NCBI GenBank assembly: GCA_964455075.1
Contig: CAYVUX010000001.1
Coordinates: 1 to 34,054, forward strand
Length of the DNA: 34,054 bases
Direction of reading: 5' to 3'
Origin: an uncultured Desulfobacteraceae bacterium
Lineage (GTDB): Bacteria > Desulfobacterota > DSM-4660 > Desulfatiglandales > Desulfatiglandaceae
The translations under genes and the position numbers were made by a program. Positions 938 to 31,650 of this stretch are shown piece after piece. Below the pieces are notes generated by a model, which saw only the letters and a list, made by a program, of their open reading frames with translations, was not told where the DNA came from and did not search any database. Positions within the stretch are counted from its first letter, which is position 1. Each line of letters opens with the position of its first letter.

Positions 938-2893
938 CTAGTCTTCCTTCAACTCCTTTAAGTTCTGATAGTAATCCAGAATTTCAGGATTTTTTAGTGC
1001 ATCCTTGTTTTTCACTTCCTGGCCTTCGATCGTCTTTTTTACCGCCATCTCCACCTTCTTCATGTTCAGCGTGTAGGGGATCTCGGGAACGGCGAGGATC
1101 TTCGCCGGCACATGTCGAGGCGAGGCGTTGGCTCGGATGTTGGTCTTGATCTTTTTCTTTACCTCGTCGGTGAGTTCAAACCCTTCCGCCATCTGGACGA
1201 ACAAGACGACACGGACGTCGTTCTTCCAGTTCTGCCCCACCACGATGCTATCGGCGATCTCTTCCATCTGCTCCAGCTGGCGATAGATCTCAGCGGTTCC
1301 GATCCGGACGCCTCCGGGGTTCAGAGTGGCATCGGAACGACCGTAGATCGTCACACCTCCCCGGTCGTTGATTTCGATGAAGTCCCCATGCCTCCAAACA
1401 CCGGGATATACATCGAAGTAGGCCGAATGGTACTTCTCTCCTTTCGGGTCGTCCCAGAAGTAGATGGGCATGGGGGGGGCCGCAGCCGTGCATACGAGTT
1501 CTCCCTGCTGATTGATCACGGACCGGCCGTTTTCATCAAAGGCCTCCACCTTCATGCCGAGACACCTGCACTGAAGCTCGCCGGCATAGACCGGCCCCAT
1601 GGGATTGCCCGCGGCAAAACATCCATTGATGTCGGATCCGCCCGAGATGGACGCCAGCTGGAGGTCCTCTTTCACTTCACCATAGATGTACTCAAAGCCT
1701 TCCACAGACAGGGGGGATCCCGTGGAAAGCAGGGCCTTGAGCGGAGACAGGTCGAACCGCTCTCCCGGTTTGGCGTCTGCGCCTTTCAGAGCGGAGATGT
1801 ACCCGGCGCTGGTGCCGAACACGGTGATTTTCTCCTCTTCCGCCATTTTCCAGAGTGCTTCGGGGCCCGGATGAAACGGGTTCCCGTCATACAGCACCAG
1901 TGTCGCGCCGACGGCCAGGGATGCGGTGAGCCAATTCCACATCATCCACCCGCACGTGGTAAAGTAGAAAATGGTGTCCTCCCGCTTGAGATCCGTGTGG
2001 AGCAGCAATTCCTTGAGTTGATTGATCAGCACGCCTCCGGCGCTTTGGACCATGCATTTTGGAAGTCCGGTTGTGCCCGATGAATACATGATGTAATGAG
2101 GGTGTCCGAAAGGCATGGGAGTGAATGGGACCTCCAGGCCCGATTCCGCAGATCGGAAATCCTGGTAATGGACGGCATTCGGCACTTCGCTGATGTCCGG
2201 GGCCTCCTGGGTGTAGGGGATAACCACGACCTTCTCAATGCTCGGAATCTCCTTGAGAATATTGGAAATCCGCTGGAGGGAGTCGAGGTCCTTGCCCTTG
2301 AACCAATACCCGTTGGCCGTGAACAGGACCTTGGGCTTGATCTGGCCGAACCGGTCAAGCACCCCTTTGATGCCGAAATCAGGAGAGCAGGATGACCATG
2401 TGGCCCCTAAGCTGGCCGCAGCAAGCATGGCGATGATCGCCTCGGGCATATTGGGGATGAAGCCCACAACCCTGTCGCCGGGGCCGATACCGGCCTCTTT
2501 CAAGGATCTGGCAATGCGAGCCACCTCGTCGTAAAGTTCCGCGTAGGTCATTTTTCGGGAGGCCTGGTCTTCGCCCCTGAAGCTGAGCGCGACGTGCTCG
2601 TCCCTGTACCTGAGGAGATTCTCGGCGAAGTTCAACTCGGCGCCGGAGAACCATTGGGCTCCGGGGAGTTTTTTGGGATCATCGACAACACGGTCATAAC
2701 TCTTCGATGCCTTGATGTCGGCGAACTCCCACATGGAGGCCCAAAAGTCGGGAATGTTTTCAATGGACCATTGGTACATGGGTTCGTATTCGGTAAAGTC
2801 CTTGCCGAACCTCTCATTGACGAACTCCATAAATCGGTACATGTTGCTGCCCTTGATCCGATCCTCGGAAGGTTCCCATAACAGTTTGGCCAT
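938..2893 (-). CDS. acetoacetyl-CoA synthetase (acetoacetate-CoA ligase, AMP-forming acyl-CoA synthetase family)
   Basis: 651-aa ORF. The N-terminus MAKLLWEPSEDRIKGSNMYRFMEFVNERFGKDFTEYEPMYQWSIENIPDFWASMWEF is typical of acetoacetyl-CoA synthetases. It has the AMP-binding motif YSSGTTGLPK. A GGAGGA Shine-Dalgarno sequence lies just upstream of the ATG (plus strand cattttttcctcc at 2891-2903). Confidence 0.9.
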   Translation of the reverse strand: MAKLLWEPSEDRIKGSNMYRFMEFVNERFGKDFTEYEPMYQWSIENIPDFWASMWEFADIKASKSYDRVVDDPKKLPGAQWFSGAELNFAENLLRYRDEHVALSFRGEDQASRKMTYAELYDEVARIARSLKEAGIGPGDRVVGFIPNMPEAIIAMLAAASLGATWSSCSPDFGIKGVLDRFGQIKPKVLFTANGYWFKGKDLDSLQRISNILKEIPSIEKVVVIPYTQEAPDISEVPNAVHYQDFRSAESGLEVPFTPMPFGHPHYIMYSSGTTGLPKCMVQSAGGVLINQLKELLLHTDLKREDTIFYFTTCGWMMWNWLTASLAVGATLVLYDGNPFHPGPEALWKMAEEEKITVFGTSAGYISALKGADAKPGERFDLSPLKALLSTGSPLSVEGFEYIYGEVKEDLQLASISGGSDINGCFAAGNPMGPVYAGELQCRCLGMKVEAFDENGRSVINQQGELVCTAAAPPMPIYFWDDPKGEKYHSAYFDVYPGVWRHGDFIEINDRGGVTIYGRSDATLNPGGVRIGTAEIYRQLEQMEEIADSIVVGQNWKNDVRVVLFVQMAEGFELTDEVKKKIKTNIRANASPRHVPAKILAVPEIPYTLNMKKVEMAVKKTIEGQEVKNKDALKNPEILDYYQNLKELKED

Positions 2894-3184
2894 TTTTTCC
2901 TCCTTGGCTGGTTGTCACGAACAATACTCTGAACAACTTTCGGCCTGTCTCCTTCAGAACTTCCGTTCCTCCATTCCTGTCCCGCTGTGGGCCGGGCTGG
3001 GTCGCTATTCCCGGGAATTCGATAAAGGAAGGCCATCTTATATCATTTGAAGTGAAAATTTTCAAAAACAAATCCGTTGTGGGAGGGCGGCGCGGTTGCC
3101 GGGATCGAGCAGTCAAATGGCGAAGCCGCATTGAAAGTCGAGGAGGCAATCTCTGCTTCGGCAAGGAGCAGGCAGTCTTTTGCC

Positions 3185-3214
3185 TTGACTATAGGCCCCA
3201 AATGGACTAAAAAT
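3185..3214 (+). promoter_or_regulatory. near-consensus sigma70 promoter (TTGACT, 17/18-nt spacer, TAAAAAT) facing the repeat element and lysS
   Basis: TTGACT lies at 3185-3190, followed by a 17-nt spacer and TAAAAA(T) at 3208-3214. The predicted transcription start is ~3220-3222, a few nt before the conserved GTTTCC (3228) that opens repeat copy 1. Confidence 0.55.
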
Positions 3215-3221
3215 CCGCGGC

Positions 3222-3526
3222 TAACTTGTTTCCATCCATAAACGGCCCTTTTCCGCAATCCCCCGTCTTCGACGGGACGGGTCGGCGTTAAACGGCGGAG
3301 TTCCTTGTGCGGTCCGTCTCAGGCGGGCCTCCGCGTAACTCCTTGTTTTGTCCTCGCTTTGCTCGGACTCCCCACCCTGCGGGCGGGTCCCCGGTTTCGC
3401 AAGGTCAAGGCTTCCGGGGACCCGCCCGCAGGGTGGGGACTGAGTCACCCGTTAGGGTGCGAAGAAAAATCTCCCATTTATGGATCGGAAACTCCTTGTG
3501 CCCCCCACCGAATTCGTGGATGGGCT
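3222..3526 (+). ncRNA. candidate structured non-coding element, copy 1 (lysS 5' leader); unknown family. The strand is inferred from the promoter
   Basis: It matches the reverse complement of 30706-30980 in two blocks. By hand alignment, 3228-3308 is 76/81 identical and 3416-3495 is 75/80 identical. The 5' end GTTTCCATCCATAAA (3228-3242) pairs with TTTATGGATcGGAAAC (3477-3492). Internal hairpins are CCCGTC-TTC-GACGGG and CACCC-GTTA-GGGTG. The overlapping ORFs at 3221..3448(-) and 30806..31081(+) both start MTQSP but then fall out of frame with each other, so the conservation is not protein-coding. Confidence 0.5.
3370..3438. repeat. perfect 25-bp inverted repeat with a 19-nt loop, embedded in repeat copy 1
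   Basis: The left arm is CCCCACCCTGCGGGCGGGTCCCCGG (3370-3394). The loop is tttcgcaaggtcaaggctt. The right arm is CCGGGGACCCGCCCGCAGGGTGGGG (3414-3438). One more T-A pair is possible at 3369/3439. Confidence 0.9.
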
Positions 3527-3586
3527 CTAGCTTGGCGAAAGGACGTGTATTCAGAAGACATTATTCGTCCGGATGGATGGTTTGCG

Positions 3587-5074
3587 ATGACAGAGAGCAG
3601 GCAGAGTCTCCCGGAGAACGGGATCTCGAAAGCAGAGAAACTGAAAAAAATGGGCATTGAGCTCTACCCGGCGGGATACAGGCCCGATACCACGGTTCAG
3701 GAGGCCCGGGAGCGGTATGACGGCCTGGATGCAGAAGCGCTCGAGAAGAAAAGCGGGCTGCACGCCATGGCCGGAAGGATCATGGCGGTTCGGGATTTTG
3801 GGAAAGCGTCTTTCGTCCATTTCAAGGACCGGACGGGGCGGATTCAAGCCTACGTGAGAAAGGACAAGGTCCCTGCCGATCAATTCGAGCTTTTCAAACT
3901 GCTTGATGTGGGAGACTTTGTTGGTTTAAAGGGGCGGATTTTTCGTACCAGGACCGGCGAACTGACCCTTTTGGTTGAAGACCTGCGAATCCTGGCCAAG
4001 TCTCTCAGGCCGCTGCCGGAGAAATGGCACGGTCTGACAGATGTTGAGATTCGGTACAGGCAACGGTACCTGGATTTAATCGTTAATGATCCCGTAAAAG
4101 AGGTTTTTGTTCTCAGGAGTCGAATTGTCCAGACTGTACGCTATTTTTTTATTCAGAGGGACTTCCTGGAGGTGGAGACCCCCATGATGCAGCCCATTCC
4201 GGGGGGAGCCACGGCGAGGCCTTTCAAGACCTATCACAATGCCCTGGGCATGAGCCTGTATCTGCGTGTGGCCCCCGAACTCTACCTCAAGCGCCTTCTC
4301 GTCGGGGGGCTTGAGCGCGTGTTTGAAATCAATCGGAATTTTCGAAATGAAGGGATCTCCGTGAGGCACAATCCAGAGTTCACCATGTTGGAGTTTTACA
4401 TGGCCTATGCCACCTATGAGGACCTCATGGAAATCACCGAGGAACTCTTTGACGAGGTGGTCCGGCACGTGTTGGGCGGGAGCTCCATCCGGTATCAGGG
4501 CCACCGGATCGACTTCAGCCCGCCCTGGCCGAGGATTTCCTTTATGCGGGCGCTTGAAGAGAGTCCGAAGGTCCCTGATCGTGTCTTTCGCGGTCGGGCG
4601 GAAGCGGCAAAGGCCGCCGAGGAATTGGGAATTCGAACCGAGGAGAGGGACGGCCACGGAAAGATCCTTACGAAGCTGTTTGACCATTTTGTGGAACCGC
4701 AGCTCATACAACCCGTCTTTGTATACGGCTATCCCACGGAGGTCTCTCCTCTTTCGAGGAGCAATGATCAAAACCCCGAGCTTGTGGACCGGTTCGAGCT
4801 GTTTGTGGGAGGGCGGGAAATCGCCAATGCCTTCACCGAGCTCAACGACCCCGAGGATCAGCGAGGACGTTTCGAGCTCCAGACTGCATTGAGAGATGCA
4901 GGGGACGAAGAGGCGCAGTTCATGGACGAAGATTTTCTGAAGGCCCTGGAATACGGGATGCCTCCGGCTGCCGGGGAAGGAATTGGAATTGACAGGCTGG
5001 TGATGCTGCTGACGGACAGCCCTTCCATCCGGGATGTCATCCTTTTCCCGCACATGAGGTCGAGGCAGGGCTAG
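3587..5074 (+). CDS. lysS: lysine--tRNA ligase, class II
   Basis: The ORF track frame is open from 3305, but homology begins at the internal ATG at 3587 (MTESRQSLPENGISKAEKLKKMGIELYPAGYRPD...). It contains the OB-fold region AGRIMAVRDFGKASFVHFKDRTGRIQ and class II motifs (FRNEGISVRHNPEFTMLEFY, GIGIDRLVMLLT). The upstream 94 codons overlap the repeat element. Confidence 0.93.
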   Translation: MTESRQSLPENGISKAEKLKKMGIELYPAGYRPDTTVQEARERYDGLDAEALEKKSGLHAMAGRIMAVRDFGKASFVHFKDRTGRIQAYVRKDKVPADQFELFKLLDVGDFVGLKGRIFRTRTGELTLLVEDLRILAKSLRPLPEKWHGLTDVEIRYRQRYLDLIVNDPVKEVFVLRSRIVQTVRYFFIQRDFLEVETPMMQPIPGGATARPFKTYHNALGMSLYLRVAPELYLKRLLVGGLERVFEINRNFRNEGISVRHNPEFTMLEFYMAYATYEDLMEITEELFDEVVRHVLGGSSIRYQGHRIDFSPPWPRISFMRALEESPKVPDRVFRGRAEAAKAAEELGIRTEERDGHGKILTKLFDHFVEPQLIQPVFVYGYPTEVSPLSRSNDQNPELVDRFELFVGGREIANAFTELNDPEDQRGRFELQTALRDAGDEEAQFMDEDFLKALEYGMPPAAGEGIGIDRLVMLLTDSPSIRDVILFPHMRSRQG

Positions 5075-23956: not shown

Positions 23957-24350
23957 TGCGGAGGCGCTGAAAAAGGCGGCCCGCGGTCCTCCCCCTTCGG
24001 TCTTAGGGGGCTGTGATTTTCTTTCCCATTCGGTCGGGGAATGGAATCCGCCGCATACTCAAAAAAGGTCCGGTCTTCATTCGGTTCACTCGGCCCCAGC
24101 CGCCGGGCAGGAACCCTCCAAATGCGGGGAAGGGTCCATGCTCACAAGGCGGCTCTGGATCTGTATGGAGCCGACATCTATTGTTATCACAAAGAAGCGG
24201 GTTCGGGCAAGCACGCGTCCATGTGAGGCCCTTCCCTCTTTTCGTCTGTCTCGTTAAAATGATAGATTGCAACATTGCCCGAGATGGGCAGAATAATCGA
24301 ATTCAGCGAGGGAGATGCACCCCATGAAAGGCGAGCACACGGGATTGGAA

Positions 24351-27300
24351 ATGAACAGTCGAACCATACGAATTAAAGGTGCAAGGCAACACAACCTTAA
24401 GAATATCAGTCTCGAGATTCCGCTCCACTGCATCACGGTGGTCACGGGTGTGAGCGGTTCCGGAAAGTCTTCTTTTGCTTTCGATACGCTCTACGCGGAA
24501 GGCCAACGGCGGTATGTGGAGACCTTCTCCTCTTATGCCCGGCAGTTTATGGAACGCATGGACCGACCCCAGGTGGACCGGATTCAAGGAATCCCGCCGG
24601 CGCTTGCCATCGACCGCAAGGCCCCGGTCAGGACCTCGCGCTCTACAGTGGGAACGATGACCGAGATCACGGACTACGTAAAGCTCATATATCCGAGACT
24701 GGCCCGGCTTCATTGCCGGCGCTGCGGGGAGCCCGTCAGGCCCGAGACACCCGAGGACGTCTGGCTGCGTCTCAAGGGGTTCCCTCGGGGCTGTGAGGCC
24801 ATCGTGACATTCCCTGTTCAGACATTCGGCCTTCCCACAGATGACGTGGTAAAGTCCCTGCTTCAAATGGGATTTTCCCGTTGCCTTCTGAACGGCGAGC
24901 TCCACGATCTTGCACAAGGAGGACTCACAAGCTCTGCCGAAGAGATCCAGGTGGTTGCAGACCGGCTCCTGCTTCGTCCCGGGGAGGCCAAACGGACCAA
25001 GGATTCCTTGGAGCAGGCCTTTCGTTTCGGAAGGGGAAGGATGGACGTATGGATCAGGGACGGGAGGAACAAGGCCGGTTCGGTTGAAGACGTCGATTCG
25101 GCGAAGCGGTTGTCATTCAGCTCCACGCTTGAATGCGCCCGCTGCCGGATATCCTATCCGGAACCGACCCCCAACATGTTCTCGTTCAACAGCCCCATCG
25201 GGGCCTGCCCGACGTGCAGGGGGTTTGGGAGAATCATCGATGTGGATCCCGACCTGGTGGTCCCGAACACGGAACTTTCTCTCGGGGAAGGGGCCATAAA
25301 ACCCTGGGGAACCGGTTCGGAATCCCGGATGGAATTTGAAGACCTCATGACCTTTTGCCGGGCAAACGGGATACCGACGCACATTCCCTTTCGGAGACTT
25401 TCCGAGCCCCAGAAAAGAATGATTATGGACGGCGGAAAAGGATTCTATGGGGTTCGAGGGTTTTTCAAGTGGCTCGAGGGAAAGACCTACAGGATGCATG
25501 TGCGCGTGTTCCTCTCCCGCTACCGTGCCTACAGGCGATGTCCGGACTGCATGGGATCGCGGCTGAAAGAGGAGCCGCTTCTATACAGGCTGAACGGCTT
25601 GAGCATCGCGCAAGTGTATGAATTGAACGTGAAACAGGCGCGGGAGTTCTTTTCAGGCGTGAAATCTCCCAGGGGCGACGCGGCAAGCCGGCTGATTCTC
25701 TCCGAGGTGCAGGGTCGGCTGCGGTATCTGGTGAAGGTGGGGCTGGAGTATCTCACCCTGGACAGGCAGTCCCGGACACTGTCGGGCGGGGAGGTTCAAC
25801 GCGTGGCCCTGGCATCTTCTCTCGGGGCATCCCTTGCGGACACGCTCTACGTGCTGGATGAACCCAGCATCGGTCTTCACCCCAGAGACAGCCGCCGCCT
25901 GTTGGACATTCTCCAGGGACTAAGCAGCCAGCGCAATACCGTTGTGGTCGTAGAGCATGACCCGGAGCTCATCGCGGGAAGCGATGTGATGCTCGACCTT
26001 GGGCCCGGGGCCGGAGAGCAAGGCGGTAACGTTATGTACTTCGGGCCGACCCGCGAAGTGGCAGGCTCCCTTACTGGCGAGTTCCTGACAGGAGAGAGGC
26101 GGATTCCCCTCCCGCAGGTGCGAAGGCCGGCCGGTTCAGGGGGATGGCTCACTATCGAAGGAGCCTCCGCCCACAACCTCAAGGGCATTCGAGTGGATAT
26201 CCCTCTGGGCTGTTTCGTTTGCCTTACAGGGGTTTCCGGTTCAGGGAAGTCCACTCTTGCCGAAGAGGTTTTGTACAAAGCCCTCAAATGGGCGAAAGGC
26301 GACCCCCAGGGGAGGCCGGGAGAATACGCTGCTCTCACCGGGATTGAACGTGTCCGGGAAACCGTTCTTGTGGACCAGCGGCCCATAGGGCGAACGCCCA
26401 GGGCCAATCCGCTTACCTACATTCGCGCCATGGACGAGATTCGAAAGCTTCTCGCCGGGACGCCGGAGGCGGCGTCCCGGAATCTTTCACCCACGCACTT
26501 TTCTTTCAACACGGCGGAAGGCCGCTGCAAGACCTGCCGGGGAGACGGGTTTGAAAAGGTGGAGATGCAATTTCTCTCCGATGTGTATGTGACCTGCCCG
26601 GACTGCGGAGGTACGCGGTTTGAAAAACCGGTCCTGGAGGTGCGGTATCACGGGAAAAATATTCACGAAATCTTTTCCATGACAGGTCGGGAGGCGCGCC
26701 GCTTCTTTTCCGACCGGCCTGCGCTTTCGAGAGCCCTGGATGTGCTTTTCGACGTCGGGATGGAATACGTCCGCCTCGGACAGCCTGTGAACACGCTTTC
26801 AGGAGGAGAAGCACAGCGTCTTAAGCTTTCCAGATATCTCAAGTCCAAAGAAGAAGACGGGATCCTGTTTATCCTGGATGAGCCCACGACGGGGCTTCAC
26901 TTCCAGGACATCGAAAAGCTGCTTGCAGCCCTTCAGGGTCTGGTGGACAAAGGCCACACGGTCCTTGTCATTGAGCACAACATGGACCTCGTCAAGTGTG
27001 CGGACTGGGTGATCGATCTGGGCCCCGAGGGAGGAGCGCGGGGTGGAGAGGTCGTGGGCAGAGGAACCCCGGAGGAGACGGCCCTGATTAAGGGATCCTA
27101 CACGGGCCGTTTCCTCAAGACGGCTCTCAGGGGAAAGCCACGAATTCCGCTGCACAAAGCAAAGACAAGGGCGGCGCCGGGCCGGTCGGGAAACGGCCGG
27201 GAACGCATATCCGTGAGAGGGGCCCGTGAACACAACCTGAAGAACCTGAGTCTGGACATCCCGAGGGGGCGCTTCGTAGTGCTCACAGGGGTAAGCGGAT

Positions 27301-29672
27301 CCGGAAAATCCACACTGGCCTTTGATGTGCTTTTCGCCGAAAGCCAGCGCCGCTACCTGGAGAGCTTGAGCCCTTATGTGAGGCAATACCTGAAGAATCT
27401 CGAACGGCCCGACGTGGACGTGATCACAGGGCTCCCGCCCGCGGTTGCCATCGGCCAAAGAACCAGCCGGGGAGGATCGCGGTCCACCGTGGCCACGCTT
27501 GCGGAGACTTATCATTTCCTCAGGCTCCTTTACAGCAAACTCGGTACCTCCCACTGTGCCGGCTGCGGCCGGGAGATGTCAAAACAGGACCGCAAGTCGC
27601 TCAAGACGGCGGTGCAAAACCGCTATGGACGAAAAAAAGGCCTTGTGCTTGCCCCCAAAATCCTGGGGCGCAAGGGCTTCCACAAGGATGTCCTGAGCGG
27701 CGCCCTGCGAAAGGGATACAGCGAGGCAAGAATTGACGGGGAATTGAGGCGCATAGAGAAAGGCATGTCTCTGAGCCGTTACCGGGAGCACACCATCGAA
27801 ATTGTCGTGGGCGGCTTGCCTTCCAAGGATGTGGAAGCACTTGTAGATGCCGCACTCGAGGAAGGGAAGGGCACCTTTCTCGTTTGCGACAGCCGGGGGA
27901 AGGAGGAGGTGTTCAGCCTGAGCGGGGTATGCCCCGCCTGCGGGACAGGCGTCCCCGAACTCGAACCTCGGCTCTTCTCGTTCAACAGCCGGAGGGGTGC
28001 TTGCTCGGTGTGCGAAGGTTTGGGGACAAGAAACACTGCCAGTGGAAATTCCGGAGAGGTGTGTCCTGCGTGCAAGGGAGCGAGGCTGAAGCCCGAGGCC
28101 CTCTCGGTGAAGGTGGGCGGCCATTCCATCTGGGACCTGGTGAAGAAATCCGTCTCCGAACTGCCGGGAGTTCTCGGGAAACTGTCGTTTGCCCGCGGGA
28201 AAATCCCGGTGGCCGAACCCATATTGGCGGAGCTTCTTACAAGGATCTCCCTGCTCGACCGACTGGGATTGGGGTACTTGGCACTTTCGCGGAGCGGAGA
28301 ATCCCTTTCCGGGGGGGAATCGCAGAGGATACGCCTGGCGGCTCAGCTGGGTTCCAACCTTGCGGGTGCCTGCTACATTCTGGACGAACCCACCATCGGT
28401 CTTCACCCAAAAGACAATGGGCTTCTCCTTGAGGCCTTGAGGCAGCTCAGGGATCAAGGGAACTCCCTCATTGTGGTGGAACACGATGAAGAGACCATCA
28501 AGGCCGCGGACACCCTTATCGATCTCGGTCCGGGCGCGGGAAGGGAAGGGGGAGAATTGGTCGGTTTGGGCAAGCTGAAGGACCTGAAGCGCACCCGCGG
28601 TTCCTTGACGGGCGCCTGCTTCAACGGGGGGGCTCACGAAATGACGTCAAGGCTGCGGCCTTATAGGCAATGTGCGTTTGTCACGGTTCGGGAAGCCCGC
28701 GCAAACAATCTGAAGAAGATTGATGTGGGCATTCCGCTTGGGACGTTTGTTGTCATCACGGGAGTATCAGGTTCGGGCAAGTCTTCGCTCTTGCGGGAAA
28801 CGCTTTACAAGGGTCTGCGGGGTCTGCTGGGCCGACATCAGGAGGCCCCTGTTCACTGCAGAGCCATCGAGGGCTGGGAAGCTCTCGACCGAGTGCTCGA
28901 GGTGGATCATCGCCCCATCGGAAGGACGCCCCGATCCGTTCCCGCTTCCTACGTAGGATTCCTGGCCGATATTCGAAGGCTCTTTGCCGGGACGAGCGAA
29001 GCCCGGAGCCGGGGCTACACGCCCGGACGGTTTTCGTTCAATCTTTCCGGCGGGCGGTGCGAGGCGTGCAAGGGGCAGGGGAGCCTTAAGGTCGAGATGA
29101 GTTTTCTGCCCGATGTTTACGTGCATTGCGAGAGCTGTGGGGGGTGCCGATACAACGACGAGACCTTGAAGGTGACTTATAAGGGAAAGGACATCTCGGA
29201 GGTGTTGGAGTTCACTTTTGAAGAGGCAAACGCCTTTTTCCGCCCCGTGCCTACGATCAGAAAGGCCGTGGAGTTTGTGTGTGCAACCGGGTTGGGTTAT
29301 CTCCGGTTGGGCCAGCCAAGCCCCACTCTTTCGGGAGGAGAAGCCCAGCGAATCAAGCTGGCCAGGGAGTTGGTCAAGTCGGGTGGGGGGCGGACCCTGT
29401 ACATCCTCGACGAACCCAGCACAGGGCTCCATCTGGCCGATGTTGAACGGCTTATGGAAGTCCTCCAGGCCCTTGTCCATGGAGGAAACACCGTGGTGGT
29501 GATCGAGCACAATATGGAGGTGATCAAGGAGGCCGATTACATCATCGACCTGGGTCCCGGAGGAGGAGAGGCGGGCGGCCGCATCGTGGCGACGGGCTCT
29601 CCGGCGGAATTCCTGGAACTGGGACACGGCTCCCACACGGCAACATACCTTCGGCGGTATCTTTCCGGCTGA
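24351..29672 (+). CDS. tandem-duplicated UvrA-like ABC ATPase: two complete UvrA modules and four nucleotide-binding domains in one polypeptide
   Basis: The track frame starts at 24315; the likely start is ATG 24351 ([19 protein letters not shown]). There are four Walker A motifs ([10 protein letters not shown]) and four signatures ([36 protein letters not shown]). The UvrA N-terminal pattern (F[AD][12 protein letters not shown] / [14 protein letters not shown]) occurs twice, and the second module starts near nt 27205. Both modules keep all the CxxC zinc modules. Confidence 0.9.
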
Positions 29673-29777: not shown

Positions 29778-30089
29778 ATGCCGCAAGCCTCAGGATCGAA
29801 AAGAGACTTGCCAAAAGTGGGGCTCTGGGATATCCGGGAGAAGACCATTCCCGGCAAGAGGTCCCATTTTGTGCGTTGGCGTGCCGAGAAGACAATCCGG
29901 CGGACTGAGAAAAAACTCAGAGCCGGTGCCTTGGCGACGAAAAGTGCGGTCATATCCGACTTTGGGCGGAGAAGCCTGCCCCAGGCAAGAACAAGGCCCG
30001 TCGATTCTGCGGGCGGGGGCGCAAATTTGCATGAAATGGCTTTTGAAAGAAGGGCGCGCACGGCCCGCCCGGCGGGATTCAGCATATGA
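29778..30089 (+). CDS. possible small, very basic protein (103 aa), hypothetical
   Basis: Its stop overlaps the next ORF's start in an ATGA arrangement (ATG 30086-30088, TGA 30087-30089). The sequence is R/K-rich (WDIREKTIPGKRSHFVRWRAEKTIRRTEKKLRAG...). There is no clear RBS and no family I recognise. Confidence 0.3.
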   Translation: MPQASGSKRDLPKVGLWDIREKTIPGKRSHFVRWRAEKTIRRTEKKLRAGALATKSAVISDFGRRSLPQARTRPVDSAGGGANLHEMAFERRARTARPAGFSI

Positions 30090-30649
30090 CGAGCCTGGAG
30101 AGCATTAATGGTCAAGGCGGGAAGGCGGCGCCGAACAGCAAGATTCTCGCAATGTGCAGGACCGCCGTGAACAAGAAACTCGGAAGCCTGGATGATCTCC
30201 CGCATGAACTGGCCAATACGGTGGTCAATATTTTTTACCGATACTTTGAAGTCTGTGTGGGCTGGGCCGGAACCAAATTGGGAGGACCTCCTGGTGGCAG
30301 CTACCATGGGGGAGACAGGGCGGGCCTTGGAGAGAAGGCGTTCATTTTTGGCGGATCCGAAACTATTGGATCTTTATACAGCAGGGCAAAGAGAGATCAC
30401 GAAGCCATCGAAAAGATGAGATATCACCTGAGACAATCAGAGCACATCGTAAAGATGGTGAGGGCGCTCCGGGGCATCGACCGGGAAAGGGAGCCCCGGG
30501 CATACGAAGCCAAGACAAAGTATATACTGGATATGATGAAGTATAAAATTAAGGATGCCAATAAAAAGTCCGATATCATTAGAGACATCGAGAGAGACCT
30601 GAACAGAAAAGAGGTAGACGAGATTCCCGATTTGTATATGCGGTTATAA
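30086..30649 (+). CDS. hypothetical protein (187 aa)
   Basis: Codon third positions look coding throughout. The C-terminal half is hydrophilic and helical (EAIEKMRYHLRQSEHIVKMVRAL...KYILDMMKYKIKDANKKSDIIRDIERDLNRKEVDEIPDLYMRL). The competing antisense ORF 29750..30307 looks like a shadow frame. Confidence 0.6.
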   Translation: MTSLESINGQGGKAAPNSKILAMCRTAVNKKLGSLDDLPHELANTVVNIFYRYFEVCVGWAGTKLGGPPGGSYHGGDRAGLGEKAFIFGGSETIGSLYSRAKRDHEAIEKMRYHLRQSEHIVKMVRALRGIDREREPRAYEAKTKYILDMMKYKIKDANKKSDIIRDIERDLNRKEVDEIPDLYMRL

Positions 30650-30705: not shown

Positions 30706-30732
30706 GAAAAATGGGCGCTAATTAGTGCCCAT
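30706..30732 (-). terminator. intrinsic terminator at the 3' end of repeat copy 2
   Basis: The minus strand reads AUGGGCAC-UAAUUA-GCGCCCAU followed by UUUUC. Seven of eight stem positions pair and the core is GC-rich. Confidence 0.6.
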
Positions 30733-30980
30733 CCACACGAATCATTTTTGGGCACTTGGGAGTTTCCGATTCATAAATGAGAGGTTTTTCTTCGCACCCT
30801 AAAGGGTGACTCAGTCCCCATCCTGCGGGCGGGTCCCCAGTTTCGCAAGGTCAAGGAACACAAGGAGTTACGCGTCCCGTCCGCAGGACGGGAACAAGGA
30901 ACTCCGCTGTTTGACGCCGACCTGTCCCGACGAAGACGGGGGATTGCGGAAAAGGGCCATTTATGGATGGAAACTAATTA
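30706..30980 (-). ncRNA. candidate structured non-coding element, copy 2 (stand-alone, terminated); unknown family
   Basis: It is the inverted homolog of 3222-3526. It has the same closing helix (GTTTCCATCCATAAATG with CATTTATGAATcGGAAAC on the minus strand) and the same conserved blocks. It lacks one palindrome arm and ends in the terminator at 30706-30732. I see no convincing promoter upstream, so the strand is inferred from the terminator and from copy 1. Confidence 0.45.
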
Positions 30981-30981
30981 C

Positions 30982-31024
30982 TTTTCCAGCCGGGTCCCGC
31001 CGTCGGCGGGACCCGGCTGGAAAA
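30982..31024. repeat. perfect 20-bp GC-rich palindrome with a 3-nt loop
   Basis: The sequence is TTTTCCAGCCGGGTCCCGCC-gtc-GGCGGGACCCGGCTGGAAAA. It lies between the 5' end of copy 2 and the RBS of the 31042 gene. It shares the CGGGTCCC core with the palindrome arms at 3370-3438. Confidence 0.9.
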
Positions 31025-31041
31025 CGGACAGGAGAAGACGA

Positions 31042-31650
31042 ATGCTGCTGCCCCAAGGGGAACATATCTGGAAGAATATGAGCGCCTCTTTTGTGGATAT
31101 GGATGAGCTGCTTTTTTTTCTTAAGAGGGATGACTTTGTGGGATATCTCAACCTGAAATTCCCGGACAGGCAGGGAGTCGTTTTCCTTCAGGAAGGCGAT
31201 CTTGTCAATGGAGTCGAGCAGAGGAAAAATGAAAGGAGGGGCGGCAAAGGAGTCGTTACAGGGATCCTGGAGCAATCAAGACGTGAGAGTGACGGGTGGA
31301 TTACGGTTTCGAAACTGACCCCCCGGAGCGTTTCCGTTCTTGCCGATGTGCTGTGCATGTCGGTGGTGATTCTTCACAAGGGGCTTTCTTCCGACTTTTC
31401 AGACCTAGAAAAATTCGTGGGCAAGCTCAGAAAAGAGGGTTTTCACGGATATATTGAGACCCGCCTTTCACGAGGTGGGCAGGAAGGACTCATCGCGCTT
31501 GATCAGGGAAAAGTCAAGGCCATTTTGACTTCGGATATGCAGCTCGTCTCAATGCGGGAAAACCAGGCCGAGCTGGACTTCATGTTTTCGAAAATTATTG
31601 AGGCGACAAAAAAGTCGGAAGCGCTTTTTGATGTCTTTGTTGCCGTTTAA
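31042..31650 (+). CDS. hypothetical protein (202 aa) with two internal DUF4388-like repeats (assigned by eye)
   Basis: ATG 31042 lies 6 nt after AGGAGA (31030-31035). The track start at 30967 lies inside repeat copy 2 (the palindrome follows at 30982-31024). The repeated pattern is FVGYLNLKFPDRQGVVFLQEGDLVNGV and FHGYIETRLSRGGQEGLIALDQGKVKAIL. Confidence 0.6.
   Translation: MLLPQGEHIWKNMSASFVDMDELLFFLKRDDFVGYLNLKFPDRQGVVFLQEGDLVNGVEQRKNERRGGKGVVTGILEQSRRESDGWITVSKLTPRSVSVLADVLCMSVVILHKGLSSDFSDLEKFVGKLRKEGFHGYIETRLSRGGQEGLIALDQGKVKAILTSDMQLVSMRENQAELDFMFSKIIEATKKSEALFDVFVAV

Follow-up and report, generated by a model that had tools for sequence, protein, structure and literature searches.

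The Correia (NEMIS) elements of Neisseria and the ERIC (IRU) elements of enterobacteria are co-transcribed with their neighbours, form long mRNA hairpins and can alter adjacent genes in expression or stability. Insertion of Correia elements duplicates TA, and their terminal inverted repeats (TIRs) are ~26 bp long; ERIC elements are not known to show a clear target-site duplication (TSD). Bacterial MITEs, such as Chunjie of Geobacter uraniireducens and QMITE2 of Coxiella burnetii, are small, non-coding elements with TIRs and flanking direct repeats that occur in multiple copies, mostly between genes; their size varies by internal gain and loss, their transcripts are predicted to form stable stem-loops, and they can lie inside operons or untranslated regions and leave these intact (PMC10969869). 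Here we report on two repeats in a 34,054-nt stretch of DNA (hereafter the window) from an uncultured deltaproteobacterium (Desulfobacterota). Both are very probably copies of a non-coding MITE common in sulfate-reducing Desulfobacterales, and copy 1 landed past the promoter of lysS. We read them in this way because of the copy number of the family, its 6-bp TSD, its YTARYTAR target, the existence of empty sites, the neutrality of its orientation and its non-coding sequence. Rfam, the plasmid and phage collections and the searchable papers gave no description of the family, which is apparently an undescribed bacterial MITE.

A repeat search of the window returned two pairs of inverted arms, one of 87 nt with 92% identity (3222-3308/30894-30980) and one of 80 nt with 94% identity (3416-3495/30759-30838). 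These arms bear out the preliminary description of the region, which had recognized two diverged, inverted, non-coding copies. The length it gave, ~270 nt, has to be revised: copy 1 is 300 nt long and copy 2 is 250 nt long (Table 1). When the two copies are aligned, non-triplet indels fill the segments between both conserved blocks. The open reading frames that overlie the repeats, 3221-3448(-) and 30806-31081(+), both start with MTQSP and then part by frameshift; nucleotide sequence and pairing are conserved, not protein, as had been proposed. A concatenated six-frame translation of both copies found zero relatives among 5.8 billion proteins. We conclude that the small ORFs over both repeats are spurious. 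Copies of the family as a whole are smaller than ~600 bp and without coding capacity, as MITEs are.

Table 1. Coordinates of the two MITE copies, their parts and the genes flanking copy 1 in the window.
Feature	Position	Strand	Remarks
Acyl/acetyl-CoA synthetase gene, other flank of copy 1	938-2893	-	
lysS promoter-like site, TTGACT-N18-AAAAAT	3185-3214	+	9/12 match; conserved upstream of lysS in relatives
Copy 1 left TSD, TAACTT	3222-3227	.	5/6 match to 3528-3533; fits family T-A-R-Y-T-A logo
MITE copy 1	3228-3527	+	300 nt, GTTTCCATCCAT to GTGGATGGGCTC
Copy 1 left terminus, 5' strand of long-range helix P1	3228-3245	+	pairs with 3474-3492
Helix P3 in copy 1, GGAGTT (3297-3302) with AACTCC (3337-3342)	3297-3342	+	MFE folds
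Variable hairpin P4 of copy 1, enclosed by P3	3311-3329	+	
Perfect 26-bp hairpin, copy 1 only	3369-3439 (arms 3369-3394/3414-3439)	+	100% complementary
Internal inverted left-end copy CCATTTATGGATCGGAAAC, 3' strand of P1	3474-3492	+	no transposon end
Copy 1 right terminus, GTGGATGGGCTC	3516-3527	+	reverse complement equals GTTTCCATCCAT at ~9/12 positions
Copy 1 right TSD, TAGCTT	3528-3533	.	
lysS, class II lysyl-tRNA synthetase, copy 1 in its 5' region	3587-5074	+	tRNA-synt_2, E = 2e-93
Copy 2 TSD by right end, TAATTA	30719-30724	.	
Copy 2 right end, exact GTGGATGGGCAC	30725-30736	-	
MITE copy 2	30725-30974	-	250 nt
Copy 2 left end	30954-30974	-	
Copy 2 TSD by left end, TAATTA (minus-strand reading)	30975-30980	.	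perfect match to 30719-30724

The left terminus of copy 1 is that of the family except for one C/T difference. Its right TSD lies 35 nt beyond the internal left-end copy, after GGGCTC. Pairing of the ends with a 1-nt bulge had been drawn by hand, and GTTTCCATCCATAAA and TTTATGGATcGGAAAC do pair so in the MFE folds of both copies; both folds likewise hold the GGAGTT/AACTCC strands that had been seen around a hairpin of copy-specific sequence. The fold of copy 1 reaches -162 kcal/mol (z = -7.9), and the reverse strands of both window copies fold equally well or better. Copy 1 differs from copy 2 by its 26-bp hairpin, the left arm and loop of which are an inverted duplicate of sequence that occurs once in copy 2 (3369-3410 against 30815-30856, in direct orientation, 95%). 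The hairpin is a mutational inverted duplication and no conserved structure.

The window copies are long variants within their family. They have in common a ~50-nt insert, CYGGGGACCCGCCCGCAGGRTGGGGACTGAGTCACCCKTTAGGGTGCGAAG, at 3416-3470 and 30784-30838 (minus strand), which contains the palindrome TGAGTCA and a duplicated GCGAA junction and is absent from all other family members examined; a 21-mer from it had zero exact matches in the genome and metagenome collections. The two copies bear different P4 hairpin variants, each of which is known elsewhere in the family. A shared insert together with differing P4 variants suggests recombination between copies.

Relatives of the window copies were found by means of the 21-nt left-end pattern GTTTCCATCCATAAAYGGCCC in metagenome and GTDB genome collections. 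The pattern occurred in at least 120 contigs from metagenomes and at least 116 from GTDB genomes, making more than 230 family loci with the same left end. Complete Desulfobacterales genomes are among the carriers (e.g., CP070768.1 and CP070769.1). Among the matches listed, the named hosts were almost all Desulfobacterales, Desulfobacteraceae or Desulfobacteria MAGs, and several MAGs had 4-7 or more matches (e.g., CSMAG_806, binchicken_co47_163, binchicken_co86_155 and Meg22_02_Bin_86). Many of the left-end matches lie at contig ends, as expected of repeats that break assemblies. For the source organism the count is two copies, taken within the 34-kb contig only. Plasmid and phage collections gave no family match, and the IMG/VR collection gave five matches only, all of them chance. 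A further pattern, GACTGAGTCACCCNTTAGGGTG, taken from the right block, had zero matches in the genome and metagenome collections; it is uninformative on the family because it lies inside the ~50-nt insert, which only the window copies carry among those examined.

By MAG label, a few matches fall outside Desulfobacterota: locus L168 (Saprospiraceae, on a 528-kb contig), L174 and L185 (Gammaproteobacteria) and L177. The copy at L168 is canonical, 176 nt long and has a TSD. Either the element has crossed between phyla, or the contigs are chimeric or were mis-binned.

Complete copies span GTTTCCATCCA... to ...TGGATGGGCAC. The 108 unique copies that were complete measure 80-369 nt, and their lengths peak at 176 and 186 nt; the window copies, at 300 and 250 nt, may be set against these. 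The outer TIRs are short (~12 bp) and imperfect: GTTTCCATCCAT matches the reverse complement of the right end, GTGCCCATCCAC/T, at ~9/12 positions, and the CCATCCA core is common to both. An alignment of 65 core-length copies gave the anatomy of the element. Nested helices make up a rod-like interior, in which the left end is paired to an internal inverted copy of itself and the right end lies in a hairpin of its own. Helix P1 joins the left end (positions 1-18) to the internal inverted copy TCATTTATGAATTGGAAAC at ~125-141; most copies have lost the CCATCCA core from the internal strand and have kept the pairing. P2, P3 and P4 are nested inside P1, and P5, GTGCCCA...TGGGCAC, is a separate 3' hairpin that holds the true right terminus.

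Variation in the interior takes the form of hairpin modules exchanged, gained or duplicated. Subfamilies differ by replacement of whole complementary arms, P2 for instance being GCAA/TTGC, GGATC/GATCC or GATGAGC/GCTCATC, and some copies have extra hairpin modules or internal tandem repeats. One ~33-nt hairpin module, CTCTCCGAGCCGTAGGCTCTACGGAGCCGGAGGC, is seen at two positions in the MITE, always at a TC|CGC junction: after CCCTTTT in L005, L093, L114, L078 and L154, and after GCGTTCT in L067. It was also seen once, in L189, with no MITE left end nearby, within the 30 nt shown upstream. Possibly the module is a very small nested insertion, either mobile or templated. Tandem or closely paired copies of the MITE itself occur in L002, L015, L080 and L049. 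A further left end (GTTTCCA...) stands immediately past the 6-bp flank of the preceding copy in both L002 and L015, like a reused duplicated target; the two copies of L080 are direct and separated by 289 nt, and the two of L049 are inverted.

Flanking repeats were scored in all 143 copies that have the right-end motif, with no TSD filter, and compared with shuffled partners. A perfect 6-bp direct repeat flanked 71 of the 143 copies; shuffled partners gave a mean of 4.5 and a maximum of 12. Repeats of 3-5 or 7-9 bp were almost never found in the same test. The duplicated hexamer took more than 25 different forms with the logo T-A-R-Y-T-A, preceded by Y and followed by R, so that the palindromic target is YTARYTAR. 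The flanking repeats are not a fixed part of the element, since more than 25 different hexamers occur. At copy 1 the duplication is imperfect, with 5 of 6 positions matching.

Empty sites were found for two copies of the family. TAATTA occurs once at locus L019, at the site where L041 reads TAATTA-MITE-TAATTA; L019 is ~80% identical to the flanks of L041, and the two sites are paralogous. The other empty site is that of copy 1. The window LysS has 73-74% identity to its nearest database proteins, and the gene order lysS-lolCE-lolD-bamA, together with the lysS promoter, is common to the window and to relatives at ~70% LysS identity. Three such relatives keep this synteny and lack the element upstream of lysS. 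The promoter, CCTTGACTA...TGGAYTAAAAAT, could be aligned across the four genomes, and the window sequence, once the MITE and one TSD are taken out, can be aligned across the insertion point to the promoter and leader that lysS has in the three relatives. The gene upstream of the lysS promoter (window 3165-3227, L242-L244) is a different one in each genome.

The promoter that had been noticed shortly upstream of copy 1 is thus also present in relatives (Table 1). Copy 1 is inserted 8-13 nt past the -10 box of this promoter (3208-3214) and lies between the promoter and the lysS start codon, with its 3' end 59 nt short of the start. It is now probably an extra ~300 nt of highly structured lysS 5' UTR. 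Transcription would run through copy 1: if the lysS promoter is used, lysS mRNA would have ~306 extra nt of very stable structure. Because lysS is normally essential, a putative read-through or alternative start must exist at copy 1. Copy 1 can be regarded as a natural experiment in which a hairpin-rich insertion of 300 nt is tolerated in the 5' UTR of an essential gene.

Copy 2 stands between two plus-strand genes, at 30086-30649 and ~31036-31650 (DUF4388-like). It is antisense to both and therefore leads into no gene in the orientation first proposed. Next to its TSD, upstream of the DUF4388-like gene, is a long GC-rich hairpin, CCAGCCGGGTCCCGCC-GAC-GGCGGGACCCGGCTGG (30985-31019), that resembles a terminator for both directions or a REP-like palindrome. 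Farther off, at 24315-29672 (+), the window has a 1785-aa ORF with UvrA DNA-binding and UvrA interaction domains and several ABC ATPase modules; it has three internal zinc-finger-like repeats (25179, 27975 and 29031) and is about twice the normal length of UvrA.

Covariation was measured in 64 copies with P1, P3, P4 and P5 specified by hand. RNAalifold had given a poor consensus on a MAFFT alignment of the same number of copies (-8.9 kcal/mol) because the subfamilies differ in sequence and register in the P2 region. With the helices specified, 89.3% of helix cells were paired, compared with 27-44% when the partners were slid by 1-3 columns. Changes on both sides of a pair were seen at 11 pairs and in 73 cells; shuffles gave 32.7 cells, and none of 500 shuffles reached 73. 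In P3, the pair of columns 53-92 is UA in 35 copies, AU in 14 and GC in 10; in P4, the pair of columns 65-81 is GC in 28 and AU in 15; and in P5, columns 162-195, position 4 from the right terminus, the pair is CG in 32 and UA in 15. The helices drawn in the preliminary description do exist, then, and they covary across the family. Compensatory change is above that of the shuffles, and therefore something beyond the termini seems to be maintained. The shuffle tests overstate this support, however, because the copies are related by descent.

Does the pairing belong to an RNA? The element had been proposed as a novel structured non-coding RNA, of which copy 1 would be a cis-regulatory leader of lysS, of riboswitch or attenuator type. 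The place of copy 1 between a conserved lysS promoter and the start codon, the very stable fold of copy 1 and the covariation of the helices across the family all speak for such a leader. The family at large does not behave in this way. Neighbouring genes are unrelated between family sites, and in the 63 copies that are clearly intergenic and have near neighbours the orientation relative to the flanking ORFs was same/same in 19, opposite/opposite in 19, divergent in 14 and convergent in 11; the downstream gene was on the same strand in 33 and on the opposite strand in 30, with no orientation bias. Copy 2 itself is antisense to both neighbours, lysS of relatives has the same promoter and no element, and 6-bp TSDs flank the copies. 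A dedicated leader of lysS is thus not what copy 1 is. A search of Rfam 15 at the gathering threshold, with the window and six family loci, had 0 matches; sub-threshold matches were to generic miRNA-hairpin models only and fell on the 26-bp stem.

Mismatches within the helices point away from RNA as well. Among 2517 helix cells we counted 98 G-T, 143 A-C and 126 other mismatches, so that a strand-specific wobble bias, G-U over A-C, is absent on either strand. We also tried to assign the strand by folding energy. The complementary strand folds slightly better in 100 of 108 copies and is more stable by a mean of 7.4 kcal/mol; the two strands have the same number of G-U pairs in their MFE folds, and we set the assignment aside as suggestive but unsupported by the types of mismatch. 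Novelty as an RNA had been tied by the preliminary description itself to the absence of dozens of TSD-flanked copies, the sign of a plain MITE, and dozens of TSD-flanked copies are what we found. As a function of the family the leader is already refuted, and we hold the whole proposal of a novel RNA to be very improbable. The structure data fit a palindromic architecture at the level of DNA, not a strand-specific RNA. Selection in active master copies could produce such an architecture, and so could template-switch "correction" of the kind illustrated by the 26-bp hairpin of copy 1.

A second possibility keeps the MITE and gives its fold a function. Transposition would pass through a single-stranded stage that depends on the helices holding the termini; the single strand would be ssDNA or else an RNA guiding or regulating the transposase. 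The element would then belong, as its non-autonomous partner, to an unusual transposition system that is possibly undescribed. The compensatory changes in P3, P4 and the right-end hairpin P5, the replacement of whole arms in subfamilies with complementarity kept, and an internal left-end copy that still pairs despite loss of its CCATCCA core all agree with this. We also know of no IS family, among those that we could name with confidence, that combines these ends with a 6-bp TSD. On the other side, the shared descent of the copies inflates the shuffle tests, and the mismatches are strand-symmetric, with the "other" class common, as in decaying DNA palindromes. The 26-bp hairpin of copy 1 shows that template-switch or inverted-duplication mutation can make pairing without selection, and a TSD of fixed length is typical of ordinary double-strand DDE transposition. 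We consider a functional fold unlikely. The same doubt extends to its more specific form, in which the family would be the non-autonomous partner of an undescribed Desulfobacterales transposon that needs a folded single strand, with the left end paired to an internal decoy and the right end in its own hairpin. Were it true, a structure-dependent mechanism that also generates a fixed 6-bp TSD at YTARYTAR would be an unusual combination. A hairpin-recognizing enzyme has been considered in another guise, that of a palindromic element (PATE), REP/BIME-like or derived from IS200/IS605, that a tyrosine (Y1) transposase would move. The hairpin-rich architecture, the conserved flank beside the left end (..TA) and the intergenic distribution would suit such an origin. 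IS200/IS605 and REP/RAYT elements are not known to make target duplications, however, and are marked by a short REP hairpin or by hairpin ends beside a fixed tetra- or pentanucleotide, and the family has an exact 6-bp repeat on both sides that varies between sites; it is also far longer than a REP. The TSD already contradicts this origin, to which we assign next to no probability.

We return, then, to the plain MITE. A transposase supplied in trans would bind the imperfectly inverted, CCATCCA-containing termini, 5'-GTTTCCATCCA... and ...TGGATGGGCAC-3', and would cut palindromic YTARYTAR with a 6-bp stagger, where the element would be inserted. Gap repair would then double the central TARYTA. 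A search of 241 loci (1.47 Mb) found no transposase-bearing parent with the ends of the family. In the same loci we found no pairs of ends 0.5-4 kb apart with a TSD, even with degenerate ends allowed, and neither long elements with matching TSDs nor clusters of multi-copy ORFs yielded a transposase. On inspection of their sequences, the ORFs beside solo left ends resemble ordinary cellular genes. Because no coding parent was found, the chemistry and family of the enzyme and mobilization in trans are open to inference only; DDE-type cut-and-paste or copy-in chemistry, acting in trans, is the one we would propose. The ISNCY/ISDol1 group, known originally from Desulfococcus oleovorans, has a Desulfobacterales host and duplicates 6-7 bp of its target. 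We mention it as a candidate parent on the strength of TSD length and host order, and as a lead only.

These results have some practical bearing. In annotation, the region ought to be entered as a mobile repeat rather than as a riboswitch of lysS or a gene for a new RNA. The family is abundant in sediment Desulfobacterales and often stands at contig ends, so that its recognition aids the assembly, binning and repeat masking of MAGs. Helices that include the termini and are kept by compensatory change deserve the attention of transposon specialists.

How does the family compare with what has been described? With the T-box and lysine riboswitch leaders of aminoacyl-tRNA synthetases, copy 1 shares a place between promoter and synthetase start codon and a stable fold of several helices. 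Unlike those leaders, the element has no Rfam match, is flanked by TSDs, is missing at lysS in relatives and elsewhere stands beside unrelated genes in either orientation. The Correia (NEMIS) and ERIC (IRU) elements resemble it as repeats of ~100-200 bp with inverted ends, but the window family has a 6-bp TSD and different ends. The closest likeness in kind is to MITEs of the Chunjie and QMITE2 type, whose traits, as set out at the beginning, are common to the window family; it shows all the structural features by which a bacterial MITE is recognized, save an identified parent IS (PMC10969869). It differs from them in a TSD of exactly 6 bp at YTARYTAR and in an outer TIR of ~12 bp that is imperfect, with the better inverted copy of the left end lying inside the element, unused as an end. 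It also spans many lineages of Desulfobacterales, not one species.
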